Virus record (IMG/VR): IMGVR_UViG_3300048837_000378
Span: 40,794-104,793 of that record
Source: a virus
Lineage: Duplodnaviria; Heunggongvirae; Uroviricota; Caudoviricetes
Length of the DNA stretch: 64,000 nt
Reading direction: 5' to 3' (one strand)
This document shows positions 22,668 through 62,344 of this stretch, piece after piece. The position numbers and the translations under genes were made by a program. Within the stretch, counting starts at the first letter, position 1; every line of letters starts with the position of its first letter. The notes under the pieces are model-generated. The model was given only the letters and a program-made list of their open reading frames with translations, searched no databases and was not told where the DNA came from.

Positions 22668-22848
22668 CTGTTACCAATCTAATTTGTTTAGGTACTACTG
22701 CCATCCTGACAGGCTTCAAAGTCTTGTGGTGCCTCAAAGTCAAAATACTACCATTACTGTAGAATACTGTAAATATAGCATCTCTACTATACATTTGAGT
22801 AGTATTAAACGTAGAGTAAGTCACCATATCTCCGACTTTAAATTCCAT
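22627..22848 (-). CDS. LYG-tail small protein family member (LFG variant)
   Basis: Ends ...EKILFGESSQT. Start refined to the ATG embedded in TAT-GGA of the upstream gene's VLYGI tail (MEFKVGDMVTY); the ORF track gave 22914. Confidence 0.5.
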   Translation of the reverse strand: MEFKVGDMVTYSTFNTTQMYSRDAIFTVFYSNGSILTLRHHKTLKPVRMAVVPKQIRLVTDAEKILFGESSQT

Positions 22849-23101
22849 AAAGTACTTCCAAAGTTGTAAGTTCTTCTGGAAATACTTCTCTACCCCATTC
22901 TGATAGAATATCATAATCTAGCTTTAACTCAACAAGATTGTATTTATCAACAATAGAATGGTAAGTAATATTCTCATTTGAGTGATACCTAGAATTTACT
23001 TTTTTATAAACGTTTCCAGAATACCATATAAATTGATGGTCTTTAGGCATAACCCCAGAATCACAGAACACTTGATGTAAAGTTCTACGTCGGCGTACCA
23101 T
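22838..23101 (-). CDS. LYG-tail small protein family member
   Basis: Ends ...LEVLYGI. Start ATG embedded in the upstream TAT-GGT. Confidence 0.5.
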   Translation of the reverse strand: MVRRRRTLHQVFCDSGVMPKDHQFIWYSGNVYKKVNSRYHSNENITYHSIVDKYNLVELKLDYDILSEWGREVFPEELTTLEVLYGI

Positions 23102-23327
23102 AAAGAGTGTCCCCTATTTTAGCATCAACTCTAAGGCACGTACAGTTAGCTGCGCCGTACCTTTCAGTCCATAATCTATACTCTATTAAACCTTTGAGCC
23201 CTTTAAGAATAATCTTTTCTTTAGTTATAAGGTTTTCTATTAAATACCAGGGTTCTTGAAACTTTTGCCAAGCTACGGAAACATCTTCTACTGAATATTT
23301 AGTTTTATTTTGCATATAAAGTTTCAA
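23085..23327 (-). CDS. LYG-tail small protein family member
   Basis: Ends ...GDTLYGTPT. Likely real start is the ATG in the upstream TAT-GCA. Confidence 0.45.
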   Translation of the reverse strand: MKLYMQNKTKYSVEDVSVAWQKFQEPWYLIENLITKEKIILKGLKGLIEYRLWTERYGAANCTCLRVDAKIGDTLYGTPT

Positions 23328-23565
23328 TTACAGATTGATTAGAAAGTATAGTTATCTTACCTTCTTTTAAATATTCTACAAATCCTGCCACAGGAAGTCG
23401 AGTCTTATACGTAGACGTATTTTTTATTGCGACATAAAAATCCATTGTACCATGGTAAAAAGTGGCGTAATCAAACTTCAAATAAGCGTCCACTGTACCT
23501 ATTTTATAGTGTAGCCATTTGTTATCGTATTCATTTAGACACATAAAGTCGTAAAAATTATTCAT
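23305..23565 (-). CDS. LYG-tail small protein family member (LYA variant)
   Basis: Ends ...IETLYAK. Start ATG embedded in the upstream TAT-GAA. Confidence 0.45.
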   Translation of the reverse strand: MNNFYDFMCLNEYDNKWLHYKIGTVDAYLKFDYATFYHGTMDFYVAIKNTSTYKTRLPVAGFVEYLKEGKITILSNQSVIETLYAK

Positions 23566-23911
23566 ATAATACTTTTTCTGTAGAAGTCATCCACTCGTAA
23601 TTAAAGTTGTCTACGCAACGTAGCACTTGAACGTCTCCGTTAAAGTCAAAATCCACTCTACCAATTCTATGAAAACCATAATGTTCGTTAAAACAACTTA
23701 CAGGACTAATAACGCCATAAGGCAACACTTCATACAACATTAAGAATTTAGACGTATTAATGCCAGCTTTAACGTAAGCCTTTATACCTTCTAACTCATT
23801 GACTTGTTCTTGGTGAATAGATTCTGTTTCGTGAGACCCGTGCCCATCACACACCGGACAGTCGTAATAGTGAGTATAAGTAATGATAAACTTACGAACT
23901 TGCTTGTCCAT
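23558..23911 (-). CDS. LYG-tail small protein family member with CxxC...H Zn motif (LYE variant)
   Basis: Ends ...EKVLYE. Has YDCPVCDGHGSHETE. Confidence 0.45.
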   Translation of the reverse strand: MDKQVRKFIITYTHYYDCPVCDGHGSHETESIHQEQVNELEGIKAYVKAGINTSKFLMLYEVLPYGVISPVSCFNEHYGFHRIGRVDFDFNGDVQVLRCVDNFNYEWMTSTEKVLYE

Positions 23912-24173
23912 ACAACGTCTCTAGAGCGCCGCCGCCCTCAAATAGTTTAACCAACAACTCTACTTTCCACCAACAAGAAGTGTCAAATCTAGTAACGTTG
24001 CCTTTGTATTCCATTTCACCATCTTCACTAATAGACAACTTATAAAAATTAGCCACTTTTATGCCTTTAGTGTTTATGTAGAGTTTTGGTGGATACTGTC
24101 GCTCGTATGCGTACCCTATCTCAGAGAACACCTCTGCCCAACCAGCCACGTACTCAGTCTCTGTTTCGTCCAT
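23892..24173 (-). CDS. LYG-tail small protein family member
   Basis: Ends ...LETLYGQASS. Confidence 0.45.
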   Translation of the reverse strand: MDETETEYVAGWAEVFSEIGYAYERQYPPKLYINTKGIKVANFYKLSISEDGEMEYKGNVTRFDTSCWWKVELLVKLFEGGGALETLYGQASS

Positions 24174-24387
24174 ATAACACCTTTTCTTGTGGATTCAATT
24201 CTCTATACCAACGTTCTACTACAGAGCTAGCCATCCAAAATCTAGACCCAATATCGTGTTTTACGCTGTAGATGACTTCGATAGCATAATCTTTCTTTCT
24301 AGAATGATAATCCATATCAATATCAAGTACTACCACAACTTCACCGTATTTGTCAATTAGTTCGGTATTAACGGGGTATTTAATCAT
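24154..24387 (-). CDS. LYG-tail small protein family member
   Basis: Ends ...QEKVLYGRNRD. AAGGT + TATGG gives the SD and start of the downstream gene. Confidence 0.5.
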   Translation of the reverse strand: MIKYPVNTELIDKYGEVVVVLDIDMDYHSRKKDYAIEVIYSVKHDIGSRFWMASSVVERWYRELNPQEKVLYGRNRD

Positions 24388-24655
24388 TAGAATACAGTAT
24401 CACAGAAGTATCAGAACAGTCCAGTAAATAGCTTAGCCAAGCACTAGGACCACTCATACAGTGCGCAGAAATCATCGCGCTATAAGTTCCACTTTTAGCT
24501 GAACGAGAGCTAACTACGACTTCAAGTCTCATAAAATCAGTAGTACGGTCTAAATAAACTACTTTATATATTGTAAAATTAGATTTATTAAACCTATTTC
24601 GTTCTTCGATAAAAGAACCTAGTTTAATCTTTAAGGGGTCTCTTAATAGGTTCAT
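24380..24655 (-). CDS. Small hypothetical protein
   Basis: 91 aa, ends ...VILYSND. In the same tandem overlapping array. Confidence 0.4.
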   Translation of the reverse strand: MNLLRDPLKIKLGSFIEERNRFNKSNFTIYKVVYLDRTTDFMRLEVVVSSRSAKSGTYSAMISAHCMSGPSAWLSYLLDCSDTSVILYSND

Positions 24656-24944
24656 TGACGAATCCTGGCAAAGAATTACATTCTTCTAATAGATACGTAC
24701 TATTTCTAGTTTCAAAGATAATACCTTTACCAGTCTTTTCAATCATATCTACTGGAGTAGTATACCAATTCTGAAAGATTACTCCGTAGCCAACTTGAAT
24801 AGTGTCCATCCAAATATCACCAAAGCCTTTAAGTTCTCTAGTGCCGTCTTCGTGTAACTTATATAATATATATGTTTGATTAGGTTTTACTTGGTACCGT
24901 TGCAAGTTCAACTCCATTAGGAATAAAGCCTTCTTCAGGTTCAA
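24624..24944 (-). CDS. Hypothetical protein
   Basis: 106 aa ORF in the array. Confidence 0.4.
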   Translation of the reverse strand: MNLKKALFLMELNLQRYQVKPNQTYILYKLHEDGTRELKGFGDIWMDTIQVGYGVIFQNWYTTPVDMIEKTGKGIIFETRNSTYLLEECNSLPGFVNEPIKRPLKD

Positions 24945-25437
24945 TGTTACTTAAAGCATTTAATGCTGTATGAGAAATTGCAAGATGTTTAACGTCGTTA
25001 ATAGGTATAACGTAGCCGCCAGTAGAATAACTACGATTTTTTACTTCTACTTTTCTAGGTTTCTTTTCTTCAATATACTTCTCCAAAGCTGGAATAAGTG
25101 TTTCTAAGTTGAAGAGATAATACACATCTTTAGTAATGAAATAGTACGCAAAGTACTTAGAATGCTTGACAGCTTGCCAAGCCCCACCATCAGTCTGTTT
25201 CCACAAATCAGAATAGCGTTCAAAGAAGAAATTGGGAGAATCATAAGTGTCAGTTTTTAGTTCTAGACCAGAACCAACCTTGTTAGACACAATGAAGTCA
25301 GCTAGTTTGCCGTCTTGTTTAATTAGGGCTGCTTGAAATCTTTTTTGAAACTGAAGTTCACCATTAGCTCCAATCTTTAGGTCTTTACTAAAATTTGGGG
25401 TACGTTTTGGTTTTATCATCGTCATCATTGTCTCCAA
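24880..25437 (-). CDS. Hypothetical protein
   Basis: 185 aa ORF. Confidence 0.4.
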   Translation of the reverse strand: METMMTMIKPKRTPNFSKDLKIGANGELQFQKRFQAALIKQDGKLADFIVSNKVGSGLELKTDTYDSPNFFFERYSDLWKQTDGGAWQAVKHSKYFAYYFITKDVYYLFNLETLIPALEKYIEEKKPRKVEVKNRSYSTGGYVIPINDVKHLAISHTALNALSNIEPEEGFIPNGVELATVPSKT

Positions 25438-25711
25438 ATAAGATTTCTTTGTTCTTGGCTCTCTTATTACTCCAAAGAACTACTGACTTAATATTACCAT
25501 AGTTCTTAACAATGTCAATACATAAGTGGACAACTGGAATAAGCCATAACATAAAACCTGCTATAGCCATAAGAAATAGCATAGTTAAGTCTTCAACTTT
25601 AATAATGATTTCTTCTTTTTTATAAAAATTAAGGTAAAGGTAATAGACCACTAAGGCAAATACCCCAGCACAGTACCAATATAATACGACGTGACTTTCA
25701 GGCAAATTCAT
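25388..25711 (-). CDS. Small membrane protein (two TM segments)
   Basis: LYWYCAGVFALVVYYLYL and LFLMAIAGFMLWLIPVV hydrophobic helices. Confidence 0.4.
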   Translation of the reverse strand: MNLPESHVVLYWYCAGVFALVVYYLYLNFYKKEEIIIKVEDLTMLFLMAIAGFMLWLIPVVHLCIDIVKNYGNIKSVVLWSNKRAKNKEILFGDNDDDDKTKTYPKF

Positions 25712-26159
25712 TCAGTTTAGCAAAGCTCCCGTACACTTCTAGTGCAGCTTTATTGTAAGCTTCAGCCGCCTCTCGCTCTGTTTTAAAGTAACCTATTCTT
25801 GTGCTTTTGTAATTATTATAGATAAAAGCTTCCCAAGGTTTAGTTTTTAGTTCTTTTCTAAACGTCACACCCTTATACTTAGAGTGCCTGTTTCCTTTAT
25901 GTTTCTTTTGATTATATTGATTTTCTAGTTTACTGCATATTCTAAGATTAGATTTTCTATTATCTAAAGTATCGCCGTTAATATGGTCAACTACCATTCC
26001 TTTAGGACAATTCATAATCAATCTATGCAAATACAAATTAGAATATGAGAAATACGTTTGTCCGACAGGATTTTTTTTACTCTTCCATTTATATTGTTGT
26101 ACTATTTTTAAACTTTCTAAGTCTATTAGAATTTGAAATTCATCAATGATTACGGTCAT
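25698..26159 (-). CDS. HNH homing endonuclease with AP2 DNA-binding domain
   Basis: VVDHINGDTLDNRKSNLRICS HNH core, then YKGVTF...KPWEAFI...IGYFKTEREAAEAYNKAALEVYG AP2-like domain. Confidence 0.8.
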   Translation of the reverse strand: MTVIIDEFQILIDLESLKIVQQYKWKSKKNPVGQTYFSYSNLYLHRLIMNCPKGMVVDHINGDTLDNRKSNLRICSKLENQYNQKKHKGNRHSKYKGVTFRKELKTKPWEAFIYNNYKSTRIGYFKTEREAAEAYNKAALEVYGSFAKLNEFA

Positions 26160-35399: not shown

Positions 35400-36362
35400 T
35401 TAGTACTTCTTTACGTTACGGTCAGCAGAACCTTCACGAGCATCAAGTTTCTTAGTCACCAATTTTTTGATATTTTCCGCAGCTTCAAGACCTACAGAAT
35501 CTAAGACTGTACGATTAAATCGAGAATAGCCGGATTGATTGATGTCAGTACTTACTTTTGTTGAATTCACTAAGGAGTCTGTGTCAGAAGCAAACAAGGG
35601 TTCTCCATCAATATATACATTCCAACTGAGAGCTTCTGTAATTAGTGGACAGTTTGACATAACGTCAACAATCTCTACTACGTGGCCCATGTAGATGAAA
35701 CGGTCGTATAGTGCGTTATGTGTACCTTTTAAGCTTTGGTCACAAGAAGGCTTAACTACTCGGTCTGCAAAACCTTGAGCAATACAGTCAGCACCATCGC
35801 ACCAGTGTTCGTTTTCAATCAATGCTGCGTAGCTTTTTGCTGTATGTTTTCCGTTTGTACGTTTGACGACTTGGGCGTCTAATCGTTGAACTCTGCGGAG
35901 ATAGTGATTATATCTAGAATCGAGTTGTCCTGGAAACTCTCCATAAAATCCACCTCGCGCTTTGTGGCTCATTAAAGTGCCGTTTTCAGTAATTAGACGT
36001 TCACCTCGTAAACCTTCTACAGTTTGGAATCCCATAGATGCGGCGAACAGCGTTACAGTTTTTACTGGTCGATTGAGATTGTTAAGGTTTTCAATTAACT
36101 CGATACCAGCTTCAGTAGACCCTCCGCCAGAATCAAGAACCAGATATAAAGGTTCATTAGACTGTAATTTGGCATCTAAATCTTTTGCTTTTTGAGTTAC
36201 TTGTGCGACCTTCTCTCCTGAGAAGTAATCATCCATAACAATTGTATTATCCTTAGTTAGGACAATTCCATTTTTTACTCCTACTGTCGTTTTCGGTGGA
36301 GTAGCTGCAAAGCTACTTAAACCTAGAAGTAGTGTGCTCATCAATACTAAAATCTTCTTCAT
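35400..36362 (-). CDS. Secreted ClpP/S49-fold serine protease (NfeD/SppA-like)
   Basis: Signal peptide MKKILVLMSTLLLGLSSFA, then LVLDSGGGSTEAG...TLFAASMGFQ ClpP/crotonase-fold motifs. Confidence 0.5.
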   Translation of the reverse strand: MKKILVLMSTLLLGLSSFAATPPKTTVGVKNGIVLTKDNTIVMDDYFSGEKVAQVTQKAKDLDAKLQSNEPLYLVLDSGGGSTEAGIELIENLNNLNRPVKTVTLFAASMGFQTVEGLRGERLITENGTLMSHKARGGFYGEFPGQLDSRYNHYLRRVQRLDAQVVKRTNGKHTAKSYAALIENEHWCDGADCIAQGFADRVVKPSCDQSLKGTHNALYDRFIYMGHVVEIVDVMSNCPLITEALSWNVYIDGEPLFASDTDSLVNSTKVSTDINQSGYSRFNRTVLDSVGLEAAENIKKLVTKKLDAREGSADRNVKKY

Positions 36363-40236: not shown

Positions 40237-40503
40237 TCAAACTATATCTTCTTTTTTCACTTTGAATAAATTTTGTGGAACAACGTATTTAATTTTAGTT
40301 AATTCTACTTCCACAATACCACACTCTTCCCAGCAGGTGCGACGACTTTTTAGCTCCTCAATAGAGGAATAAAGTGGTATTTTGCCTTCTAGGTCCGGTG
40401 CTTCACCAATCTCCTCTGACCAATCAATACCGCAGCAATACATTATTTTACTTGATTTTTTTTGCTTCTTTGCCATATAAAACTTTGGCTCCGTCCGACT
40501 CAA
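40237..40503 (-). CDS. Small hypothetical protein
   Basis: 88 aa. Confidence 0.35.
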   Translation of the reverse strand: MSRTEPKFYMAKKQKKSSKIMYCCGIDWSEEIGEAPDLEGKIPLYSSIEELKSRRTCWEECGIVEVELTKIKYVVPQNLFKVKKEDIV

Positions 40504-40798
40504 AAGGGTACAGACTAAGTTTGTCTAAGTCTATCTCCGCATCTAATTCCATTATTTTAGAATGGCTATTTTTTTTAATATGGTATTTTTTGCACATTTT
40601 TAATGCTTTCATATTCGGAGCTGAGTCAAACACTATTTTTACTCTAGGCATTCTTTTTTCATCTGATGCTCGAGTAAATGAAGGGTGTTCGTCTGTTCCA
40701 AAATAGTCTATAGATACTTTGACGCCAGTATCTCTTATGTATAGAGGTTCATTTTTGAACATCGCTTCAATCAGTTTATCTCTAACTCGCCAATCCAT
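40448..40798 (-). CDS. LYG-tail small protein family member
   Basis: Ends ...DGAKVLYGKEAKKIK. Confidence 0.45.
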   Translation of the reverse strand: MDWRVRDKLIEAMFKNEPLYIRDTGVKVSIDYFGTDEHPSFTRASDEKRMPRVKIVFDSAPNMKALKMCKKYHIKKNSHSKIMELDAEIDLDKLSLYPFESDGAKVLYGKEAKKIK

Positions 40799-44385: not shown

Positions 44386-44988
44386 TTACTCCAACACTTC
44401 GTCCGCTAATCCTAATTCTACAGCCTCTTCTCCAGTGACAATAAAATCTGATTTTAGCATCTCTTGTATATCTTTTTTTGTTAAGCTAGGATTCACTGCT
44501 TGCATTTTTTCTAAAAACAAATCTTCCATCCAAGAATCAATTTTTTTATTATCATCAATCCATTTGTATACGTCTTGAGCATTTCCATCACTACCGAAGC
44601 TGCCGTAGTGCATCATAAAACGGGAATTAGCAGACATTACTCGCTTGTCTGCTGCTTGTAAAATGATTCCTCCCATAGACATAGCTTTACCATATACTAT
44701 GATAGTTATGTGATTTCTGCAAGCTTTGATTGCATCATAAATACCAAGACCGTCGTACTCATCTCCACCAGGATTATTCATAATGATAGTTATGGGTTTG
44801 TCTCCATTAGGGGCAGAACTGTCTAAAATATGAAGTCCTTTAATGATTCTTTGAGCCATCTCAGCGTCAGTCCCTGACTCACCGTCTTCATTATCTACAG
44901 CATGAGACCGCATTACAATAGTTCTAGTCGGTACGTAAATATCGTAATCAAATAGTCTATCAATCTCATCTTTGTAGATTTTTGCCAT
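44386..44988 (-). CDS. clpP: ClpP-family serine protease
   Basis: NNPGGDEYDGLGIYDAIK, GKAMSMGG (Ser nucleophile) and RFMMHYGS motifs match ClpP. 200 aa. Confidence 0.8.
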   Translation of the reverse strand: MAKIYKDEIDRLFDYDIYVPTRTIVMRSHAVDNEDGESGTDAEMAQRIIKGLHILDSSAPNGDKPITIIMNNPGGDEYDGLGIYDAIKACRNHITIIVYGKAMSMGGIILQAADKRVMSANSRFMMHYGSFGSDGNAQDVYKWIDDNKKIDSWMEDLFLEKMQAVNPSLTKKDIQEMLKSDFIVTGEEAVELGLADEVLE

Positions 44989-50577: not shown

Positions 50578-51252
50578 TTAAAATTTAGGTTCAGTTTTTT
50601 GTTCAGTTTGTACGTTTCTTTTTGGAAATTTAATTTGAGTAGCTTGGACTGACGGTTGCTTATCTGGTGCCGGAGTTTTAGTTTGACTTAAATCTAATAA
50701 AGTTGAAGTCACAGCTTTTACGGAGTTATCAACTTCTTTAGTTTCCGAGGCACTAGGTTTAATTACACTTGGAGCAATATTTAGCCCTTTAGCTGGTTGT
50801 ACCGAGTTGCCTTTTTGTTTACGCGGACTTACGCCATCATTTTCTGGGTCATCTTCTGTAGCCACCATAAAGTTTTTACTGACAAAATACTTCATAGCCC
50901 CAGTAATAGCCTTATATGCCCCTTTATCTAAAGAATCATGGCCAGAACCTACGGATTTAACTGAAAAGGTTTCTCCACTTTCAGTATCCGCAAAAGTGTG
51001 AGTAGTTTCAATAATAGTAATAAGGTTTTCTTTATCTTTATTGACTACTCGTTCAGCATGTTTATATTCTGATGAAGTTAGAATCATTAGATTATTTTTT
51101 ACTAAGTTATTTCTAATCGCATCCAGAAGGTCGTTTTCTGTAGCGTAGCTATAACTCTGATGTGAGTTGTACCCAGTTTTTTCAATAGCTTCCGTTGCTG
51201 CAAGCACCGCTAAAATCTTTTTAAAAAGTCCTGCTTTAGCTTTATTTTCCAT
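50578..51252 (-). CDS. ERF-family single-strand annealing protein
   Basis: N-terminal LAVLAATEAIEKTGYNSHQSYSYATENDLLDAIRNNLVKNNL matches the ERF N-terminal pattern. Confidence 0.6.
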   Translation of the reverse strand: MENKAKAGLFKKILAVLAATEAIEKTGYNSHQSYSYATENDLLDAIRNNLVKNNLMILTSSEYKHAERVVNKDKENLITIIETTHTFADTESGETFSVKSVGSGHDSLDKGAYKAITGAMKYFVSKNFMVATEDDPENDGVSPRKQKGNSVQPAKGLNIAPSVIKPSASETKEVDNSVKAVTSTLLDLSQTKTPAPDKQPSVQATQIKFPKRNVQTEQKTEPKF

Positions 51253-51814
51253 TAATTTCCTCCAGATAAATTATCGCATTCTTTAAAATGCTCACGTTTT
51301 CTTTTAACATACCTATACCAGAATTGCAAGTAGAACATAAAAGTCCTCTAATTTTTCCAGTAAGATGATTATGGTCAACTACTAATTTTTCAACATTGTT
51401 GCAAATTTTACATTTGTTATTTTGTTTTTCTAGTAATTTCTGATATTCTTCTAATGTTATACCAAAATTATACTTAAGTCTAGAATTTTTTACTTTATCT
51501 TTATTTTTTTTAACCCAAGACTTTTGATAGGCTGTAACTTTAGTTTTATTGAGTTTTCTCCAAATCTTATTTGTAGTTAATATTTTTTCTTTATTTATGA
51601 GATACTTTTTACGCTTACGTTCAGTTTCTCTAGATTTATTTTTTAAATAAGCTTTTTTAGTTCTTATATTGCAGCACACTTTACATTCATAATAGAGACC
51701 ATCTTTTGTTTTAGTTTGCCTATAAAATAAACTAATATTCTTTTTTACTTTACAATTAGTACAAGTCTTTTTCATTTCTTTTTTGTCAATCCCGTTGCAT
51801 CGCCTTTGTGACAT
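51242..51814 (-). CDS. Endonuclease VII-type HNH homing endonuclease with Zn-finger N-terminus
   Basis: LVVDHNHLTGKIRGLLCSTCNSGIGML, the Endo VII family core. Confidence 0.8.
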   Translation of the reverse strand: MSQRRCNGIDKKEMKKTCTNCKVKKNISLFYRQTKTKDGLYYECKVCCNIRTKKAYLKNKSRETERKRKKYLINKEKILTTNKIWRKLNKTKVTAYQKSWVKKNKDKVKNSRLKYNFGITLEEYQKLLEKQNNKCKICNNVEKLVVDHNHLTGKIRGLLCSTCNSGIGMLKENVSILKNAIIYLEEINGK

Positions 51815-52879: not shown

Positions 52880-53443
52880 TTATGGTATCTCCTGTAATTT
52901 GTTCCATTTTCTATTTAAAATTGGAAGATTGTACCGTTTTGAAAATTGATATAATTGTTCTAGTTTTTTATTATCATATAATGATACTATATGTATCTTA
53001 CTTTTGCAATGAATTATCGGTTTATGTTTAATTCCTAAAATTTTAGACATCCAAAAAAGTACATTTGGTGTACCTAGTATTCGTAATCTTAGATAGCGAC
53101 CATTATATCCAATAGTACCATCACCATCAATGTATCCAATTATGTAAGCCAGTTCTTGAGATTTTTTTAAACCTTTTGGGTATTTCAAAGTTAAAGATTT
53201 TTTATTAACGATATTTAATTTTTCTAAAAATTCTGCTAAAATTTTATCTGTAAAAGTTAAACTCGTATTTGTTGTTGTTTTACTTATATAAATTTTATTC
53301 TTAACATGAAATTGAATTTTTAGTTTTTTTAAATGTTTTAAATCTTTTACAGACAAGCATACGCTTATTCTTTTAGATTTAGTAATATATCCGTCCGCAG
53401 CAATAAATCCTGCCCAATAATAGTCTGTTAAATTATTTTTCAT
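52880..53443 (-). CDS. LAGLIDADG homing endonuclease (two-motif, free-standing)
   Basis: YWAGFIAADGYI and YIIGYIDGDGTIG LAGLIDADG motifs. Confidence 0.75.
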   Translation of the reverse strand: MKNNLTDYYWAGFIAADGYITKSKRISVCLSVKDLKHLKKLKIQFHVKNKIYISKTTTNTSLTFTDKILAEFLEKLNIVNKKSLTLKYPKGLKKSQELAYIIGYIDGDGTIGYNGRYLRLRILGTPNVLFWMSKILGIKHKPIIHCKSKIHIVSLYDNKKLEQLYQFSKRYNLPILNRKWNKLQEIP

Positions 53444-54104: not shown

Positions 54105-54268
54105 CCTACTTCGGTCACTTCATTTTCCCCAACTGTTTCAAGCCTAATCATGTGTTCTTCTACAACTTCTAGAACTCTATCTAAAGACGTAATAGTATCG
54201 TACTTCAAATTATCTTTACAAATCTCAAAACACTTTACCATCTTTTCTAGCATTTCGCTACGTTTCAT
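54089..54268 (-). CDS. Small hypothetical protein (59 aa, not in ORF track)
   Basis: MKRSEMLEKMVKCFEICKDN... ATGA overlaps at both ends (with 54265..54537 and with the phosphoesterase start). Confidence 0.4.
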   Translation of the reverse strand: MKRSEMLEKMVKCFEICKDNLKYDTITSLDRVLEVVEEHMIRLETVGENEVTEVGWEQE

Positions 54269-54537
54269 AGATTGTAGGGTTCCATATACTTTTCATATAA
54301 TAATTTGCAACTAAGTCTAAAAGCTTCTGAAGGCCCATTTTGGATAAAGTATTTAGTAAGCAGCACTAAATTGTGAGCTTCTTCAGGATTCATTGGTTTA
54401 TCATATAGTAATTTCAATCTTAAAATTTCAAACTGTTCTACCATAGCATAAGTATTTCCATGCTTTTTCATGCGTCTCATCTTAGCTTCATCTAAACTCA
54501 CTAAGTTTTCTGGTAGGTTATTTTTCTTTTCGTCCAT
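54265..54537 (-). CDS. LYG-tail-like small protein (LYE variant)
   Basis: ...SCKLLYEKYMEPYNL. Confidence 0.4.
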   Translation of the reverse strand: MDEKKNNLPENLVSLDEAKMRRMKKHGNTYAMVEQFEILRLKLLYDKPMNPEEAHNLVLLTKYFIQNGPSEAFRLSCKLLYEKYMEPYNL

Positions 54538-54766
54538 TTAGTTCTTCCTGTAAATCTTTTAAAACTAAGACCGCAGCTTTATGAAACATCATTCTATCTT
54601 TTAAAGACATCAACTTTTGTGCTTCTAAAGTAATTTCCATTTTTTTAGTAGGGTCTTGTTTAAGTTCAGAAACTGTTTTTCTAATCTTTTCAATATCAAT
54701 TAACAGTAAATTAATTACTTGCTCGTGTTCAACTACCCTTTTATCAATTAGCTTATTTGTCTCCAA
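54518..54766 (-). CDS. Small coiled-coil protein
   Basis: 82 aa. Confidence 0.35.
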   Translation of the reverse strand: METNKLIDKRVVEHEQVINLLLIDIEKIRKTVSELKQDPTKKMEITLEAQKLMSLKDRMMFHKAAVLVLKDLQEELNGRKEK

Positions 54767-55016
54767 AAAGAACCTCGGCCTCTTTAGTTAATTTCATTAG
54801 AAATCGTGGTACACTTTGCATTAATGGCACTGTTTCCGTGCAGTATGTATAAGTTGGAGCATTATAAGTACTAGAAGTTGAAATTCCAGGCACTTCTTTT
54901 TGAACCGAAGTAAGTACTACGTTAGACTCATAGAAAATATTGACTAACTCGTATCCGTTTTTTACCATTTCATTCAAATCGTGCTCATTTACGCTGATGA
55001 AAGTAGGTTTATTCAT
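54753..55016 (-). CDS. Small hypothetical protein
   Basis: 87 aa, ends ...EVLFGDK. Confidence 0.4.
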   Translation of the reverse strand: MNKPTFISVNEHDLNEMVKNGYELVNIFYESNVVLTSVQKEVPGISTSSTYNAPTYTYCTETVPLMQSVPRFLMKLTKEAEVLFGDK

Positions 55017-55310
55017 TTATTTTCCTCCAAACAGAACTATGGCTGCTTCTGTTGCAGGTATCATTCTAGCTGGTATATTTCTTAGCCAAATTTCTTCATT
55101 TTTAAATTTTACCCACACATGAGAGTTGTTTGCCTTAACTATGATAACTGGAGTATTTGCTGGAATAACTACTTTTTTTGTAGGTTGTGAAAAATATCCT
55201 GCGGCTTCATAAGAATCTTTTTTTATGTCTTTTGTAAAAAGAACTACGTCGCCTTTTTTGAAAGGGGTAGCGTTAGCTGTAGGTCTACCTTTAGCCATTT
55301 GCAGCCCCAA
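55017..55310 (-). CDS. LYG-tail small protein family member (LFG variant)
   Basis: FKKGDVVLF N-terminal motif. Ends ...AAIVLFGGK. Confidence 0.5.
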   Translation of the reverse strand: MGLQMAKGRPTANATPFKKGDVVLFTKDIKKDSYEAAGYFSQPTKKVVIPANTPVIIVKANNSHVWVKFKNEEIWLRNIPARMIPATEAAIVLFGGK

Positions 55311-55905
55311 ACATAACCCTCAAAGCTTTTGACTCTTCTGGCCAAACAATTTCAGTTAAATTGATAATTTGAGCTTTGAATGATTTTTCGTACAATTTAA
55401 AACTTTCTGCATCGTACATAGCATTAGGAGAATAGCAAAGAATGTATAAACATTCTACTAATCCTCTGATTTCCTTATTAACAATTGCATCAATTAGATA
55501 AATTCTAAACTTATAAAACTCATGAAAAGTAATATCTGAATGGTCGTCAACAAGGTTATCCCTATATGTTTCTAGGTCAGAATTTTTATACGCCCCTTCA
55601 AAATACCTGTCCATTGCCGAGTGAAAGTTGCGCAGCGCCATACGATACGCTGAAAATTTGGAATTTAAAGTTTGTTTTACTAGGTATTTAATCAGTACAG
55701 CAGGGTCGATTAGTTTAGCTAGGTCGGCTACTAGACAATCTGGCACATCTTCAGTAAAGGATTTTTGAAAATCTTGAAGAACACTTACTACTGTTTGATA
55801 AGACGTGACAGGTTTAGGCTTACTGGGCCTAACAATAGGAGCATTAATCTGAGACATCACAAGAGGACTATGTTTAGTTTGAACGACGACAGGTTTCTTA
55901 ATCAT
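55291..55905 (-). CDS. Hypothetical protein
   Basis: 204 aa. Confidence 0.4.
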   Translation of the reverse strand: MIKKPVVVQTKHSPLVMSQINAPIVRPSKPKPVTSYQTVVSVLQDFQKSFTEDVPDCLVADLAKLIDPAVLIKYLVKQTLNSKFSAYRMALRNFHSAMDRYFEGAYKNSDLETYRDNLVDDHSDITFHEFYKFRIYLIDAIVNKEIRGLVECLYILCYSPNAMYDAESFKLYEKSFKAQIINLTEIVWPEESKALRVMFGAANG

Positions 55906-56798
55906 TTTAAGACCTCGGGAACATTGTATATAACTTTGTTATTCTGTTTTTTAACAAAAATTGTCCATTTAATTCGGTTCTTTTCAATAACTCTTTTAAC
56001 AGTTTGTTGTATTGCTTGCTTGCTCACTTTAAGCTCTTTTGCGGCAATTGTCAAGGATTTATTCAGGTTGTATATATTGTTTAATACTATAAACTGGTAA
56101 GGGGTTAATTTTGTTTGGTTATTTTGAATAAAGTGTCTCATTGTTGAGTACTCTGCTAGAGTCGTTAAAGCCGCGTATAACTCGTATTTAGCTCTAGCTT
56201 GGTCGTGGTAGCCTAATTCAATTGCTATCGTTAGGAAGTCTTTTTGTTCATATAGGTAGGCTTCTAGCGTCCGTTTGCGACGCGGTTTAAGTACGTCCCA
56301 AGCCACTTTTAGGTCTTTTCCTAATAAAGTCCCCATAATTACCGTATTATCTGGCTCTGGGGCTATATTTTCTAAATTGTCTCTATATTCCAGTTGAGGT
56401 TCTTCTGATTTATCTCTTTGAAGAAAGTCGTTAACTTCAGCACAGGCTGATTTACAGGTCGTAGCAATAGGGCAGCCGCCACAGTTAGAAATGAATAATT
56501 CTCCGTTAACAATTTTATGAGTTTTGGCTAACTCGTCTAAATAGGGTTTAGCGGTAACAGACTTGTGCGGCAAAGGCCGCCCTAAACACTGTTTACCAAA
56601 GCACACAAGCCTCTTAGGACACTCGTCCATAGATTGCCCATAGGCTGCCATAGTCTCGCGCCTAATGTCTCTTAAAACGTCTTCTCTAACGTCTGAAGCT
56701 ATAGCCATTGCCCAAGGTGGCCTAGTACAACTGGCCGGTTTATTGTCTTTTTTAAACTTTTTATCGTCCAAACAGCACCTTTCCAGCCGGAGTAGCAA
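55902..56798 (-). CDS. Putative transcription regulator (sigma-70 region-4-like HTH) with N-terminal Cys cluster
   Basis: C-terminal LTIAAKELKVSKQAIQQTVKRV HTH. N-terminal C-x-n-C cluster. Annotated start is TTG, so the true start is uncertain. Confidence 0.4.
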   Translation of the reverse strand: MLLRLERCCLDDKKFKKDNKPASCTRPPWAMAIASDVREDVLRDIRRETMAAYGQSMDECPKRLVCFGKQCLGRPLPHKSVTAKPYLDELAKTHKIVNGELFISNCGGCPIATTCKSACAEVNDFLQRDKSEEPQLEYRDNLENIAPEPDNTVIMGTLLGKDLKVAWDVLKPRRKRTLEAYLYEQKDFLTIAIELGYHDQARAKYELYAALTTLAEYSTMRHFIQNNQTKLTPYQFIVLNNIYNLNKSLTIAAKELKVSKQAIQQTVKRVIEKNRIKWTIFVKKQNNKVIYNVPEVLK

Positions 56799-56985
56799 TA
56801 CGAACGTGTTGGCTGTTATCTAAATACTCTACGTCAAGTAGTTCTCTAGGATGTCCTGATAAAGCGTAGAAGTATTTCCACTTTTCAGCATAAACGTGCT
56901 GCTCTATGCCCTCAATAACAAAAATTCTTCCCATCAATGTTTGAAGTACGTCGCCTTTTTTATATTTAGTTTTCATTTTTCCCAT
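56761..56985 (-). CDS. LYG-tail small protein family member (LFG variant)
   Basis: KYKKGDVLQTL N-terminal motif. Ends ...PAGKVLFGR. GGAAAGGTG-CTGT-TTG gives an SD and a candidate start for the next gene. Confidence 0.5.
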   Translation of the reverse strand: MGKMKTKYKKGDVLQTLMGRIFVIEGIEQHVYAEKWKYFYALSGHPRELLDVEYLDNSQHVRIATPAGKVLFGR

Positions 56986-57247
56986 ATAACAGTATCTCCG
57001 CAGGAGTAGCTAGTCTAGCATAATTATCGTAAAATTCTTTAACAGTTTTGTATCCGTCTTGGTTTTTAAGAAAGTCGGTAATATACTCTTGCAGTTGTTC
57101 CTCAAAATATACAAAACCATGTCTAAAAGAGTATAAATCATATCCTGTATCAGATACAGCAACTATTTTATACAGGTTATTTAGTTTATAACCAATATCA
57201 GAAGTGTCTGCCATTCTAATTATATCATTTATTTTATACTTGGCCAT
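56966..57247 (-). CDS. LYG-tail small protein family member
   Basis: Ends ...AEILLYGKNEN. Confidence 0.5.
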   Translation of the reverse strand: MAKYKINDIIRMADTSDIGYKLNNLYKIVAVSDTGYDLYSFRHGFVYFEEQLQEYITDFLKNQDGYKTVKEFYDNYARLATPAEILLYGKNEN

Positions 57248-57533
57248 ATAAAATCCTATTTATTTTTCGCTGCTTTATAATTTTCTGAATGTCTCCAGAT
57301 TTGTAATACCGAAAGTGTCCAGATTCAAACTCTTTTTTTAAATCCAATTTAAAAGGTTGTCCTAGGTATCCACCAAAGGCAAACTCACCATGAAGAGTGT
57401 CGCACAAAGAACGCACCCACAAATCGTTTCCTTCTACTTTCACAACCCTAACAATTGCATGATAAAGTTTTGATTTGTAGATTGCTTCAAAACCAGTATT
57501 TATTAGTACATCACCTTTTTTAGGCTTGACCAT
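57234..57533 (-). CDS. LYG-tail small protein family member
   Basis: KPKKGDVLIN N-terminal motif. Ends ...NRILYGQV. Start ATG lies inside the TAT-GGT of the upstream tail (checked base by base). Confidence 0.55.
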   Translation of the reverse strand: MVKPKKGDVLINTGFEAIYKSKLYHAIVRVVKVEGNDLWVRSLCDTLHGEFAFGGYLGQPFKLDLKKEFESGHFRYYKSGDIQKIIKQRKINRILYGQV

Positions 57534-57786
57534 ACAATACCTGTACAGCTTTAGGAAGCAATTTAATTTGATTCTCTCTAACTAAATCTAAGTCTCTTGT
57601 ATTTTGCCACCGAATCAATACCCACTTTGATTTAGTTTGATAAGCCGTAGATGCAATATTTTTCCAAGACCTATAATCTTTTGGAGAAATTAGTTTATCT
57701 GGAGTACAAACTTTTCCAATTTGGAGAGGTCCCTCATTTTTAAACATAATCAAATCGCCGTGCTGATATTTATTACTTATTGGCAA
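57520..57786 (-). CDS. LYG-tail small protein family member
   Basis: YQHGDLIMF motif. Ends ...AVQVLYGQA. Annotated start is TTG, preceded by AGGTAAGGTG. Confidence 0.5.
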   Translation of the reverse strand: MPISNKYQHGDLIMFKNEGPLQIGKVCTPDKLISPKDYRSWKNIASTAYQTKSKWVLIRWQNTRDLDLVRENQIKLLPKAVQVLYGQA

Positions 57787-58081
57787 ATAGCACCTTACCT
57801 GCTAAGGTACTTTTTATAAGTCTCTTTCTTAGAAGATTTTCAAATACTTCTATAGAATCTAAAAGTTTTTCATATCTCCATTGTTCAACACCGTCTTTTT
57901 TGGCGTATTCAACTCTATCTTTTAAATGTTTTATGATATTTTGTAAGTGGTCATCTTTAATGAATTTATAAGGTATTCTAACGCCGTCCAAAGTAGTCCA
58001 ACATTCTTTATTGGGATTGGCAATAAGATATTTTTCAAACATCTCTATTTCTTCTTTTGAGTAAGAACTTTGTTGGCTCAT
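57773..58081 (-). CDS. LYG-tail-like small protein (LFA variant)
   Basis: Ends ...LAGKVLFANK. First gene after the promoter at 58088..58116. Confidence 0.45.
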   Translation of the reverse strand: MSQQSSYSKEEIEMFEKYLIANPNKECWTTLDGVRIPYKFIKDDHLQNIIKHLKDRVEYAKKDGVEQWRYEKLLDSIEVFENLLRKRLIKSTLAGKVLFANK

Positions 58082-58176: not shown

Positions 58177-59376
58177 CTAGTCTTTAGGGCCTGTATTGGA
58201 CATCTTATCGCTAATGCGCATAAAAGATTCTAGTCCTACAGCATCAAAGGGGTTCAAAGCTTGTCCACCTTTTCCATCACCGCCACCAATAACCATCATA
58301 CCTGGAAATTTAACTTGAGACATTTTTTCTGCTACTCCAATAGAAGTTTTCATTTGATATTCAGCTCGTTCTTGTGGAGTGAGACCTGCTTGCACTTTGA
58401 GTCGATTAGTTTCAGCTTCAGCTTTACCTCTCACTACGGCGGCTTTGGCCTCTTCTTCAGCTTGCAGTCGTTGTTGTACTGCTACTTCTTTTTCACGTTC
58501 GGCATTAATAACCGCAGTCTTTTTTTCAACTAAGGCTAGAGCTTCTGCTTGTGCGACTTTTGCCTTTCCTTCTTCTCCTGCCGTAATAGCGTCTTGCTTG
58601 GCTCGTTCGGCTTTAGCCCTAGATACTACTTTTTCTTGTTCAGCTTCTTTCTTTTTGACAATAATAGCTTGTGTTTTTTCATCAAAATCAAAGTCTTTAA
58701 TCACAAAATTAATTACTTCTACATTGTACCTAATTAGAGGAGACCCTTTACTAATGATACGTTTGCCTTCTTTATCCGTTTTGATGCGAACTTGAGTTTC
58801 CGTATAAGTGTTTCCATCAGAGTCGGTCTCTTTGATTTGTTCCGATAAAGTTTCATAGATACCTAGTTTAATCTGTTCTTCTGCTAAAGTAGTAAACTCT
58901 GCCAAGCGACCAGAATAAGATTCTTCTGCTTTCATAGTAGCGGCAGTTTTATTTAAAGCCTCCTGCACTACTTGCCTAATAAGGTCGTTCTTTACGGCTT
59001 CATAGGCTTTAAAGTCCTTGTGCAGTAGAAGTTGGTCAGACTCTTTAGTTGATAGACGAAACTTGATAGCGCCTGAAATAAAGGCTTGACCGCCATCATT
59101 AAACCGGACTGTAATAGGCTCCGCACCTACCTCTGGACCGTCACCGTCATGTTTAGAAAAATAGTACATATCAGATACTTGGTAAGTACTAATATTTCCA
59201 AAAAACTGATTATAAGTACCTGCCTGATTACGCACAGACATTTCCCCACTAACAGCCGCTTGTTTGACTTGGTAATAACCTTCGTCGTTAGTTTCTACTA
59301 TTTGTCCTACTGTAGACAGTAGAGTAATAAGAGCAACAGCTCCTAGTACCATAATACCAATTTTTCTTGGATTCAT
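58177..59376 (-). CDS. SPFH/band-7 (stomatin/HflC-like) membrane protein with long Ala/Glu/Lys-rich coiled coil
   Basis: N-terminal TM IGIMVLGAVALITLL, an SPFH-like core, a C-terminal AEQEKVVSRAKAERAKQDAI... coiled coil, and a GGGDGKG tail. Confidence 0.7.
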   Translation of the reverse strand: MNPRKIGIMVLGAVALITLLSTVGQIVETNDEGYYQVKQAAVSGEMSVRNQAGTYNQFFGNISTYQVSDMYYFSKHDGDGPEVGAEPITVRFNDGGQAFISGAIKFRLSTKESDQLLLHKDFKAYEAVKNDLIRQVVQEALNKTAATMKAEESYSGRLAEFTTLAEEQIKLGIYETLSEQIKETDSDGNTYTETQVRIKTDKEGKRIISKGSPLIRYNVEVINFVIKDFDFDEKTQAIIVKKKEAEQEKVVSRAKAERAKQDAITAGEEGKAKVAQAEALALVEKKTAVINAEREKEVAVQQRLQAEEEAKAAVVRGKAEAETNRLKVQAGLTPQERAEYQMKTSIGVAEKMSQVKFPGMMVIGGGDGKGGQALNPFDAVGLESFMRISDKMSNTGPKD

Positions 59377-59597
59377 TTGTTTTCCTTTGTAAATTTGTTA
59401 ATTTCATTTTGTTTTTTATCAACGTCTTTAAATTCTTCTTTAGTTTGTACCACTTCTTGATATTGTTCGTCAACTAATTTTATTTCGGCAATTCTATTGC
59501 GGACGTTGGCTTTTTGCACAGCTAGGTAGATATTATATAATATAAGCCCTCCCACCCCTACAGTGAACAAAAAAATTGCTAAAGCTATAATACTCAT
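59373..59597 (-). CDS. Small single-TM protein (holin-like topology)
   Basis: MSIIALAIFLFTVGVGGLILYNIYLAV TM, then a charged C-terminus. Confidence 0.4.
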   Translation of the reverse strand: MSIIALAIFLFTVGVGGLILYNIYLAVQKANVRNRIAEIKLVDEQYQEVVQTKEEFKDVDKKQNEINKFTKENK

Positions 59598-60001
59598 TAG
59601 TATTCTCCTTTTCCGTATAAAACGTCAAATGTTTTTAAATCTTTACTAAAATATTCCCATTTAGGGTTAGCGATTTTTTCTTTTTCAAACATTCTACCGC
59701 CATTAGTAGTCATTCCGCCACGTCTTTCTAGGTCGAAAGTAATTTTAAATATACCCTCTTCTCCACAATCTTGTAGCACTGTCCAGTCCGTCGCTATATA
59801 GCCGCCTCTATTAGACTTTCTCCAAAATAAAGCTATAAACGACTTTTCAATAGCGTACTCAATAGTGTTGGTCAGGCTGGGTCCTAATATTGAGTGTTCT
59901 TTTAATACCATAGTTCTAGTGTTGTAGTCTGCAATAACTATAATAGTATTTGTTTTACCATTAAAACAATCGTATTTCACGGTTTCAATTACAGGGTTCA
60001 C
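59597..60001 (-). CDS. LYG-tail small protein family member
   Basis: Ends ...TFDVLYGKGEY. Confidence 0.45.
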   Translation of the reverse strand: MNPVIETVKYDCFNGKTNTIIVIADYNTRTMVLKEHSILGPSLTNTIEYAIEKSFIALFWRKSNRGGYIATDWTVLQDCGEEGIFKITFDLERRGGMTTNGGRMFEKEKIANPKWEYFSKDLKTFDVLYGKGEY

Positions 60002-60519
60002 ATATACCTCGCCACCAACGTTTTGTATATTTCACAATTATCTTGAATCTTATGTTTTGGCGCGGTCCCTACGTTATATCTACACCAATAGTCTAATTCT
60101 CTGTGACCAAAGCTTCGTTTAAAATCGGCTAAGACCATTGCTCCAGCTTTCACAGAATACTCTAAATCAGTGAGTAATCTTTCTTTGTCAAAGCCATAGG
60201 CTTCAATTGTTTTATGGTTAATTTGTGATATACCATAGTCTAGGGATTTTGTATTTATTGCGTCTAATTTATAACCGCTCTCGTGTGCTAAAATTGCTGC
60301 AAGTCTGTAAGGTTTAATGTTGTAAACTCTAGCTAAATTGTGGATTATGTTAGACAATTCCATAGCATAATTTTTATCAATATTTGTTTTATTTTTGACA
60401 ATTTGACAATATATAGGATGTTCTTTGCAAATATCATTCGCTTGGCAAAGAATTGATGTCACCAAGAATACCATAATTAATATTAGGTGTTTCATTTGGA
60501 CCTCCAAAAAGTACTTCAT
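59998..60519 (-). CDS. Secreted lytic transglycosylase (SLT domain)
   Basis: Signal peptide MKHLILIMVFLVTSILCQA. AHESGYKLDAINTKSLDYGISQIN matches the SLT catalytic E-S...GLMQ region. Likely true start is the second Met (GGAGG SD). Confidence 0.7.
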   Translation of the reverse strand: MKYFLEVQMKHLILIMVFLVTSILCQANDICKEHPIYCQIVKNKTNIDKNYAMELSNIIHNLARVYNIKPYRLAAILAHESGYKLDAINTKSLDYGISQINHKTIEAYGFDKERLLTDLEYSVKAGAMVLADFKRSFGHRELDYWCRYNVGTAPKHKIQDNCEIYKTLVARYM

Positions 60520-61075
60520 AGTTCTTATCTTTATATACCAATTTATTATCTTTGTCTACAATTAACCATTTAGGAGCAACACCGACTGACAAAGCCTCTA
60601 CACCAGTCAATTTGTACCATGTGGGAGGTCTAACATCTGTGTTCCATCTAGACGTTAAATATTGTCTATAAGCTTCTACAGTGTCTCCTATATGTTTAAA
60701 GTCTACGCCTTTGCTTGAATTTGCTGCGCAGTTTGCAAAGGGTGTAGCAGGTGTTTCTGAAAAACAAGAAAGAGATTTTGTATTCAAGTCGTTCAATATA
60801 TCCAAACATTTATGGGTTTTGGCGTACCTTCGTTCGTACTCGTCACACAAATAAAAAGCATGGTCTAATAGCCACAGAAAATTAGTTTTTGTTTGGCGAG
60901 CCCACACATTTGAAGGGTGGTTTGCGTGAGTAGACTTATAGGGCGTATTGTGTCCATGATGATTTAAAGCGGTACAAAGCATTTGAGTTGATTCTAAGCA
61001 CATCTTAATAACACGCTTATCATCTAAGTTTTGCGCACACAAATAAGGGTTTAAATCACTAAAAAATATATTCAT
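60434..61075 (-). CDS. Pyrimidine-dimer DNA glycosylase (T4 endonuclease V/DenV-like) with C-terminal extension
   Basis: N-terminal DLNPYLCAQNLDDKRVIKMCLE and RPPTWYKLTG resemble the T4 endo V ends (ADQHLMAEYRE / RPTWYKYYGK). Extension carries EVLFGG. Confidence 0.45.
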   Translation of the reverse strand: MNIFFSDLNPYLCAQNLDDKRVIKMCLESTQMLCTALNHHGHNTPYKSTHANHPSNVWARQTKTNFLWLLDHAFYLCDEYERRYAKTHKCLDILNDLNTKSLSCFSETPATPFANCAANSSKGVDFKHIGDTVEAYRQYLTSRWNTDVRPPTWYKLTGVEALSVGVAPKWLIVDKDNKLVYKDKNYEVLFGGPNETPNINYGILGDINSLPSE

Positions 61076-61870: not shown

Positions 61871-62344
61871 TTATTTACCATATAAAATCTTAGTTGTTGG
61901 TCCAATAGGTACTATTTCATTAAGATTTACAACTAAACTTTTTTTAGCATTCATAATTTTGTATTGTAGACTGCCTAAATCATCAAATTTAGATAAAATA
62001 ACGCCTTCTACGAGAACATTCCCCAATTCTTGGTGGAAAGCTACGTCTCCAGCTTTGAACGGTAAATGTGTTACAGTCTGTTCTACAGTTTCAAGCCAAT
62101 TAATTTTTTCTTGAAGTTTGTCTCTTTCTAAAATAGTTTTAACTTTTGATTGCCTAATAAAATCTATATCTGCATTTTTACGATTAGTCTTTTCTAAAAC
62201 AGACTCTTCTAAAGTTTTTACTAATTCATCAAAACTAGCTTTTGACATATCTGCTGAGCCGCTGATGCCATAAGACATGGCGTCTTGGGCATGAGTTGTC
62301 TGCCTACCAGCAATACCAGAAGTTTTTTGAGAAGGGTAACTCAT
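61871..62344 (-). CDS. LYG-tail small protein family member
   Basis: FKAGDVAF motif. Ends ...TTKILYGK. ATGA overlap with the upstream gene. Confidence 0.5.
   Translation of the reverse strand: MSYPSQKTSGIAGRQTTHAQDAMSYGISGSADMSKASFDELVKTLEESVLEKTNRKNADIDFIRQSKVKTILERDKLQEKINWLETVEQTVTHLPFKAGDVAFHQELGNVLVEGVILSKFDDLGSLQYKIMNAKKSLVVNLNEIVPIGPTTKILYGK

Follow-up and report, generated by a model that had tools for sequence, protein, structure and literature searches.

Constant terminal modules that direct divergent proteins to a single machine are known from several viruses, among them the PRANC/F-box-like C-terminal domain of poxvirus ankyrin proteins and the capsid-targeting sequence of T4 internal proteins, and arrays of small ORFan genes with variable order and conserved boundary sequences are familiar from the hyperplastic regions of T4-like phages and from promoter early stem-loop (PeSL) shuffling. 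In T4, an interchangeable clamp-binding C-terminal tail is found on gp43, gp55 and gp33, with an internal copy in T4 ligase (PMC2988020, PMC6212786), and gp43 itself ends EKASLDFLFG (PMC6212786). Overlapping coupled genes, the background for translational coupling and re-initiation, have been reviewed (PMC12548453). Here we describe a C-terminal tail with an L-[YF]-G core that recurs on many small proteins encoded in a 64,000-nt stretch of a Caudoviricetes genome (IMG/VR record IMGVR_UViG_3300048837_000378, positions 40,794 to 104,793; hereafter the window, to which all coordinates refer), and whose codons repeatedly house the start codon or the Shine-Dalgarno (SD) sequence of the next gene. 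A preliminary description, made from the sequence alone, had listed at least 18 such genes in two arrays (A and B) and at dispersed positions, and had proposed that the tail could be a docking, degradation or targeting signal.

Occurrence and conservation of the tail

The minus strand is the coding strand for all genes from ~22.1 kb to 64 kb of the window, and the listed open reading frames (ORFs) with their tails are indeed present on this strand. The family is real; its size had been underestimated. A [VIT]-L-[YF]-[G/A/E/S] segment located 0-22 residues before the stop is found in 22 window genes, all on the minus strand, the near-variants TLYG, TLYA, VLYE, VLFA and ILYS being counted as members. 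These ~22 members are distributed over array A (10 genes, 22386-25711), array B (8 genes) and four dispersed positions (40448, 59597, 61871 and the DenV-like gene 60434-61075), and include three that had been overlooked, 54753-55016 (EVLFGDK), 55291-55905 (RVMFGAANG) and, in array A, 22838-23101 (VLYGI). The strict motif [VIL][LM][YF]G within at most 15 residues of the C-terminus of real genes is observed 14 times, whereas amino-acid composition predicts 0.2; there are just two further occurrences in the 20,474 aa, and none in the real plus-strand structural genes of the window. In full, the tail is a module of about 10 residues with the pattern h-[RK]-x-x-T-x-[A/T]-x-[K/E/R]-[V/I]-L-[Y/F]-G. 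A tail-only hidden Markov model (HMM), trained solely on the tails of other phage loci and on no window sequence, ranked 16 window tail genes at positions 1-16 among 480 six-frame window ORFs, with all 16 matches located 0-8 residues from the C-terminus. BLAST alignments between member pairs are essentially confined to the tails, and the tail is, as had been proposed, a protein-level feature common to otherwise unrelated proteins.

A megablast search of the region and a tblastn search with the external protein P0011 gave no match among GenBank phages, IMG/VR scans with the sigma-like protein, PolA and the fam3 protein of the window (families are numbered fam0, fam3 and so on) returned nothing or one distant PolA locus, GTDB genome contigs yielded nothing, and a word-indexed protein search with the paralogue alignment as query recovered only this phage. 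The window sequence recurs unchanged within a JGI metagenome contig, and its PolA shares 31% identity with the counterpart in Flavobacterium phage immuto. The profile search of the family that the preliminary description had suggested was carried out as a full HMMER search of 1.8 billion proteins with a profile of 12 SH3-like paralogues, and this recovered four outside homologues with the same tail (P0011 and P0013-15; P-numbers denote external proteins), which share an N-terminal ISKKYKHGD and a C-terminal RLATxAExxLYGK. The profile also matched P0010, an external flagellin/FlgL-like giant of 1581 aa with ~12 repeats containing DTGEILFGKN; this match is probably a coincidence with the tail-like ILFGK segment. 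Homologue contigs together with the sigma-like and fam3 proteins led to the loci L004, L005/6, L007-12 and L014-18 (L-numbers denote the loci of relatives), a set drawn from at least six uncultured related phages; all these loci have tails, and they are syntenic with the window. In L004, the tail is carried by 21 of 44 called genes. Over eight loci, 63 strict and 87 loose tails were counted, and it is to these clade-wide sets that the fractions below refer. At E<=1, the tail-only HMM found no match in 42 kb of Flavobacterium phage immuto, nor in L001.

The nucleotide information profile of the tails is 3-periodic, with third codon positions at ~0-0.3 bits, whereas the V/I and L codons are nearly invariant at their second positions, as is the Y/F codon at its first; Leu is encoded by both TTR and CTN. 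Conservation also reaches past any initiation signal on the upstream side, with A/T at -3 and T at -5. Between orthologues, identity amounts to 58% in the 10-residue tail as compared with 31% in the remaining protein, and differences in the core codons fall on codon positions 1/2/3 as 17/6/33. The proportions of nonsynonymous (pN) and synonymous (pS) differences, a comparison of tail and gene body that had likewise been suggested, favour protein-level selection, with pN in the tail below that of the body: among the closer relatives (window, L014 and L015/17), pN and pS are 0.12 and 0.59 in the tail, and 0.28 and 0.66 in the body, the ratios being only rough as pS is near saturation. The tail of 55017, which is free of overlap, has pN 0 at pS 0.5-0.84, and the tails of 55017, 61871 and 59597 are conserved despite having no start role. 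The segment that follows the tail has a median of 2 codons as compared with 5 by chance (p=0.05), a signal too marginal to accept selection for a very short post-tail segment. Judged by these sequence comparisons, the tail is selected at the protein level and is not entirely explained by overlapping starts.

Tail codons as initiation signals at cassette junctions

In codons, L-Y-G reads YTN-TAT-GGN and L-F-G reads YTN-TTT-GGN, and in 15 of the 22 window cases these read T-ATG-G or T-TTG-G across the Y/F-G codons, and the ATG or TTG is where the next gene is predicted to start, in the +1 frame. At 57520, for example, GTA TTG T-ATG-GT CAA GCC TAA opens MVKPKKGDVL, the product of 57234, and at 56761, GTG CTG T-TTG-GA CGA TAA opens MDDKKFKK, the sigma-like protein. 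Across the clade, 49 of the 63 strict tails embed an ATG/TTG with which the next ORF opens. Such starts are also picked by independent gene callers, and the N-termini of the downstream proteins are conserved from the embedded codon onward; the N-terminus of the sigma-like protein, MD[DE]xKFKK, is kept from the embedded TTG/ATG in five loci (window, L005, L007, L008 and L014). A start inside the upstream ORF with the protein conserved from that codon, which is what translational coupling calls for, is present at 15 of 22 window junctions. As the start codon resides within the Y/F-G codons, the genes overlap by 8+3n nt, with lengths of 8, 11, 14, 17 and 20 nt in a single frame relation, and the residues after Gly are rich in K/N/Q/E, as they are read out of frame from the next gene's AT-rich 5′ end. 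The embedded ATG/TTG also accounts for the TAT/TTT bias, for part of the Gly conservation and for the position of the tail at the gene boundary. The Y/F codon has a final T in 80 of 87 tails versus 60% TAT and 82% TTT genome-wide, and both TAC tails of the window are cases without a start.

At a second type of junction, F-G-G is encoded as TTT GGA GGN and provides a GGAGG Shine-Dalgarno for an ATG located 5-8 nt downstream, as observed at two window sites (55017 to 54753, and the DenV-like gene to the SLT transglycosylase gene). Four window tails have no initiation role of any kind (61871, 59597 and 22386, the latter two TAC-coded, and 24380), and 14 of the 63 strict clade tails, TAC-coded ones included, have no start role. 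The preliminary description had considered that its proposal would fall if overlapping starts explained the tail entirely; the embedded starts are as common as given above, but they are not the whole explanation.

Mean SD pairing energies are -3.8 kcal/mol at embedded starts, -6.9 kcal/mol at structural-gene starts and -2.1 kcal/mol at random positions, and at many embedded starts an SD is lacking; ordinary starts of the phage have the form TAAGGAG-N5-7-ATG. An SD was rejected as the explanation of the tail given that embedded starts have weak SDs, and RNA structure was rejected in view of the absence of a structure signal at 61 junctions (mean z = -0.02), where start accessibility equals that of random positions. 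The weak SD at embedded starts suggests coupling or re-initiation, by which the downstream genes would mainly be translated. The structural genes at 1-22000 on the plus strand have a strong canonical TAAGGAG Shine-Dalgarno (mean -6.9 kcal/mol). Such sequences would be unusual if the host belonged to the Bacteroidota, even though, judged by PolA, a Flavobacterium phage is the nearest cultured relative. Two arrangements in relatives depart from the usual junction. In L011, a fam0 orthologue (9739-10020) ending SEITIHGRKEV retains the ATG of the sigma-like gene (C-ATG-G) with a decayed tail (L to I, Y to H), a rare case of a start conserved without the motif. In L010 (420-480), the sigma-like gene is preceded by a conventional AGGAGA Shine-Dalgarno, starts with ATG and follows an ORF that lacks a tail, so that this gene does not strictly require a tail junction.

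The order of genes from the SPFH gene to the sigma-like gene varies among relatives, being fam21-7-22-0-0-sigma in the window, 21-22-7-0-sigma in L011, 21-7-22-sigma in L014 and 21-7-(206-nt gap)-sigma in L015/17. The breaks are always at the junction, where whole cassettes are swapped, gained or lost. The upstream family keeps its sequence through V-L, and from the start codon on, including the residues after Y/F, the sequence follows the downstream family. Accordingly, Y/F toggles with ATG/TTG: the sigma-like gene starts with TTG after VLFG in the window and with ATG after VLYG in L005, L007 and L008, and fam22 ends in RILYG before an ATG gene in the window and in RILFG before the TTG sigma gene in L014. 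Since the upstream gene contributes V-L-T and the downstream gene ATG-G or TTG-G, any two cassettes can join with both ORFs intact. The junction is in effect a universal joint, at which each junction-to-junction event recreates a valid tail together with a valid start. The 206-nt stretch (L015 537-742, L017 931-1136) separates fam7 (tail KVLFGKN) from the sigma-like gene, holds no called gene where the window and L014 have one to three cassettes, and could represent either the remains of a cassette or a promoter region.

Possible roles of the tail

The tail is carried by SH3-like barrels, an all-alpha DUF416-like bundle, a membrane protein and a Pyr_excise (DenV-like) enzyme. The SH3-like members form five-stranded small barrels, and the recurrent N-terminal KKGDV motif noted in the preliminary description is real and corresponds to the first strand of this barrel; the fam3 fold is DUF416/SsdAI-like. 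No match above threshold was found for ten array B proteins, nine of them with a tail, with Pfam-A and PHROGs profiles. In both AlphaFold models, the tail is a short terminal helix that ends at a capping Gly, and among SH3-like small beta-barrel proteins such a Gly-capped C-terminal helix is specific to this phage clade.

The reading that we favour, with a probability of roughly 0.45, is that the tail may be a docking helix that links many small proteins to one shared partner, for which the T4 clamp-binding tail is the closest precedent. A dual-coded docking helix would then be combined with translationally coupled, plug-compatible gene cassettes, and the tail would be retained for one common job. 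Candidate partners would be the phage ClpP (whose presence, as had been claimed, is evident from PF00574, E=3e-29) or a host unfoldase, a host clamp or RNA polymerase, or the phage sigma-like system. A more specific form, which we consider doubtful, is that small fast-evolving binder domains share a docking helix that plugs into one hub, e.g. ClpP together with a host unfoldase, with the cassettes reshuffling in frame; if true, the binder domains would be substrate adaptors or takeover factors. Several observations weigh against a docking helix. The tail helix has a predicted local distance difference test (pLDDT) score of about 85 in both AlphaFold models, and a value this high agrees with packing of the helix against its own domain no less well than with a free docking peptide. 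As SH3-like paralogues form the majority of members, part of the sharing is common descent. The 0-22 unconstrained residues after the Gly exclude motifs that require a free C-terminus, and the length of the segment after the tail falls only marginally below chance (p=0.05).

The confident AlphaFold helix after the last strand or helix is also the main argument for a possible, if on balance unlikely, alternative in which the tail is a structural relic, namely the capping helix of an expanded paralogous family that was spread by tandem duplication and recombination at the junction, has no shared partner, and is retained since it stabilizes each protein and the overlap constrains it doubly. The predominance among members of SH3-like paralogues with the KKGDV N-terminus, and the resemblance of the arrays to duplication products with cassettes shuffling at the junction, agree with such an origin. 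However, the 10-residue pattern is kept on the all-alpha DUF416-like protein, the membrane protein and the glycosylase, the same sequence in unrelated cores is not expected of a purely structural helix, and tails free of overlap show pN=0 at pS 0.5-0.84. The stand-alone ClpP at 44386-44988, and the presence of a hydrophobic segment near the C-terminus of many small accessory proteins, would suit a degron through which the breakdown of accessory proteins is timed, be it by the phage ClpP together with a host unfoldase or by Lon or FtsH; we assign this a low probability, as the tail is unlike the LAA-COOH tags of ClpX, stands 0 to 22 residues from the C-terminus, is predicted to be helical and ordered, and is carried by a DNA-repair enzyme and by a protein conserved beside the sigma-like gene.

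Two further explanations place the conserved element in the nucleic acid, and both appear much less probable. A recombination or cassette-exchange site in the DNA, with an att-like or microhomology core and an incidental peptide, would account for the differing gene order among relatives with breakpoints and cassette gain or loss at the junction, and the phage has genes for ERF, a RecA-like protein and several homing-type endonucleases; it is nevertheless very unlikely, as only ~8 of 12 bases are fixed, the free ones being wobble positions with Leu as both TTR and CTN, inverted or direct repeats and RNA structure are absent from the junctions, and survivorship alone would put viable breakpoints there. 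The tail could also be a by-product of initiation, with the next gene's SD, A/U-rich spacer, ATG and +4 G simply being read in the upstream frame. The start embedded in 49 of 63 tails, the SD-like AAG-GTG in some of them and the TAT/TTT and +4 G bias point in this direction, but the idea is largely refuted and we give it hardly any credence: SDs at embedded starts are weak and in many cases missing, conservation falls on second codon positions in the upstream frame and leaves third positions free, 14 tails (two of them TAC-coded) have no start role, the A/T at -3 and T at -5 precede any initiation signal, normal starts (TAAGGAG and spacer) lack such a T pattern, and pS is equal in tail and body.

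Small ORFan genes account for a large part of phage ‘dark matter’, and here a quarter to half of them clade-wide bear one conserved handle; a common partner, if found, would assign a shared mechanism to dozens of uncharacterized proteins at once. The junction itself is an unusually regular instance of dual coding, in which one peptide motif repeatedly houses the next start codon or Shine-Dalgarno, and it shows that overlapping genes can still act as exchangeable cassettes.

Members, neighbouring genes and comparison with known systems

In array B (all genes on the minus strand), 57773-58081 (fam21, 102 aa) ends KVLFANK, and the TTG at 57786-57784 in its F-A codons starts the next gene; its orthologues in L005, L011, L014 and L017 retain KVL[YF], with Y/F matching the downstream ATG/TTG. 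The next gene, 57520-57786 (fam7, SH3-like, N-terminal MPISNKYQHGD), has the tail QVLYGQA with the ATG of its successor at 57533-57531, and both its N-terminus and its tail recur in the external homologues P0011, P0013 and P0014. That successor, 57234-57533 (fam22, N-terminal KKGDVL), ends RILYGQV and embeds the next ATG at 57247-57245; its L014 orthologue ends RILFGRE and adjoins the TTG start of the sigma-like gene. Two fam0 genes follow, 56966-57247 with the tail RLATPAEILLYGKNEN and the next ATG at 56985-56983, and 56761-56985 (N-terminal KKGDVL) with the tail RIATPAGKVLFGR, in which the TTG at 56771-56769 starts the sigma-like gene. The latter (55902-56771, a sigma-like/HTH protein) lies on the downstream side of a tail junction without being a tail member itself, and starts with TTG in the window and ATG in L005, L007 and L008. 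Its N-terminal half is Cys-rich, and the HTH matches are region-4-like only. The conserved C-terminus of the sigma-like protein, NK[VI][IV][YF]N[VKT][PS]E, is tail-like in degenerate form; as a degenerate tail it was rejected, for NKVIYNVPEVLK looks like a conserved beta-hairpin of the sigma-like protein itself. The sigma-like gene is always followed by fam3 (window, L005, L007, L009 and L011).

In the fam3 protein of the window (55291-55905, 204 aa, all-alpha), the tail ESKALRVMFGAANG is the last helix, residues 189-199, capped by G200. Its embedded TTG was rejected as the start of 55017, since orthologues keep an ATG four codons downstream; this conserved ATG (MAKGRP), at 55298, is outside the tail. 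Gene 55017-55298 (SH3-like, FKKGDVVLF) has the tail PATEAAIVLFGGK with no embedded start, and its TTT GGA GGA constitutes a GGAGGA Shine-Dalgarno for the ATG at 55016. The gene that begins there, 54753-55016, ends with LTKEAEVLFGDK, in which the TTG at 54766-54764 starts gene 54518-54766, and has orthologues in L014 and L015. Gene 54265-54537, with LLYEKYMEPYNL, is probably outside the tail family. It had been listed as a variant, a claim that probably does not hold: the segment belongs to a different C-terminal block, CK[YLF][LM]YEKYM, kept in L005, L011, L014 and L015, with no embedded start, and the match to the tail-only HMM is weak (E=0.13).

The dispersed members are also on the minus strand. 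Gene 61871-62344 (157 aa, with a C-terminal SH3-like domain, FKAGDVAF) ends GPTTKILYGK with no start role, the next gene beginning beyond its stop; the L011 orthologue ends ATSVLYGQK, likewise without use as a start. The DenV-like pyrimidine-dimer glycosylase (60434-61075, Pfam PF03013) bears YEVLFGG in its C-terminal extension, in agreement with the EVLFGG block noted previously, and its F-G-G codons (TTTGGAGG) are the SD for the ATG at 60495 of the SLT transglycosylase gene (59998-60495, SLT domain). GGAGG is located 5 nt upstream of this ATG, and although the metagenome gene call puts the start at 60474, ATG 60495 is probably the start, and the predicted protein MKHLILIMVFLVTSILCQA is signal-peptide-like. 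The tail of gene 59597-60001 (fam6, 134 aa), KTFDVLYGKGEY, is TAC-coded and embeds no start; EVLYG is retained, with a TAT codon, by the L005, L011 and L014 orthologues, and in L005 and L011 the ATG embedded at this TAT opens the next ORF. Gene 40448-40798 (116 aa) has the tail GAKVLYGKEAKKIK, whose ATG at 40476-40474 starts the next gene (MAKKQKK).

Array A, again on the minus strand, includes a membrane protein (25388-25711) with two hydrophobic segments and the tail KNKEILFGD followed by 13 residues; its embedded TTG 25437 is the probable start of gene 24880-25437. Nine small genes in succession (22386-24655) complete the array, namely 24380 (ILYSND, no embedded start), 24154 (KVLYGRNRD), 23892 (TLYGQASS), 23558 (VLYE), 23305 (TLYAK), 23085 (TLYGTPT), 22838-23101 (VLYGI), 22627 (ILFGESSQT) and 22386 (ILYGKNKK, TAC-coded, no start). 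Seven junctions of this run embed the next start, six as ATG and one as TTG. An HNH-AP2 gene (25698-26159) adjoins array A. Elsewhere on the minus strand, a second ClpP-family protein (35400-36362, 320 aa) has an N-terminal signal- or lipoprotein-like sequence, and 58177-59376 encodes an SPFH/Band-7 protein; the two recall the NfeD-stomatin pairing, but their genes are not adjacent here. A free-standing LAGLIDADG gene (52880-53443, minus strand) and an Endonuclease VII-like gene (51242-51814, minus strand) lie between the Metallophos, PD-(D/E)XK and ERF genes, are missing at the same positions in L014, and look like mobile nuclease insertions.

Literature searches gave no description of such a tail, and several known motifs were considered as counterparts. 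A beta-clamp motif (QL[SD]LF / QLxLxL) was rejected because the matching positions are variable (-2 E/L/A/I; -1 K/E/R), with Q in 6 of 87 tails. An ssrA-like ClpX degron (LAA-COOH or RRKKAI-type) was rejected as the tails lack a terminal AA. The HbYX motif was rejected since only tails that end in LYG (3 of 63) conform to it and since Phe or Leu can stand in for Tyr in the tail. The tail partly resembles that of the T4 clamp-binding proteins in being a short hydrophobic motif that ends in L-F-G, at or near the C-terminus, on functionally different phage proteins. Of the T4-like features, L-[YF]-G is present; the Gly is terminal in 3 of 63 tails, with 0-22 residues beyond it. The acidic residue of the T4 type (LDFLFG) finds no counterpart, position -1 being K/R/Q in 45 of 87 and E in 14 of 87 with no conserved Asp, and no clamp family, and hence no gp45-like clamp, was found among 40 window proteins scanned with Pfam, the window being all of the genome but about 40 kb. 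Whereas the T4 tail is acidic, placed at the extreme C-terminus and carried by 3-4 proteins, the tail described here has basic or polar flanks, is followed by 0-22 residues after the Gly, is carried by >20 proteins per genome, and is dual-coded with the next start.

The PRANC and T4 capsid-targeting modules are longer or N-terminal, have known partners and are not dual-coded with a neighbour, and PeSLs are non-coding DNA repeats of promoter and stem-loop, whereas the junction in this phage is coding, conserved as protein and devoid of RNA structure. With coupled overlapping genes (-4, -1 or -8 nt) it shares a downstream start inside the upstream ORF and a weak SD; unlike in usual coupled genes, the start invariably falls within one conserved pair of codons in a conserved peptide, and the -4 and -1 overlap classes are a minority within the arrays. 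Shared terminal docking modules and coupled overlapping genes are thus already known, and what distinguishes the present system is the systematic dual coding of the tail and the number of its carriers.

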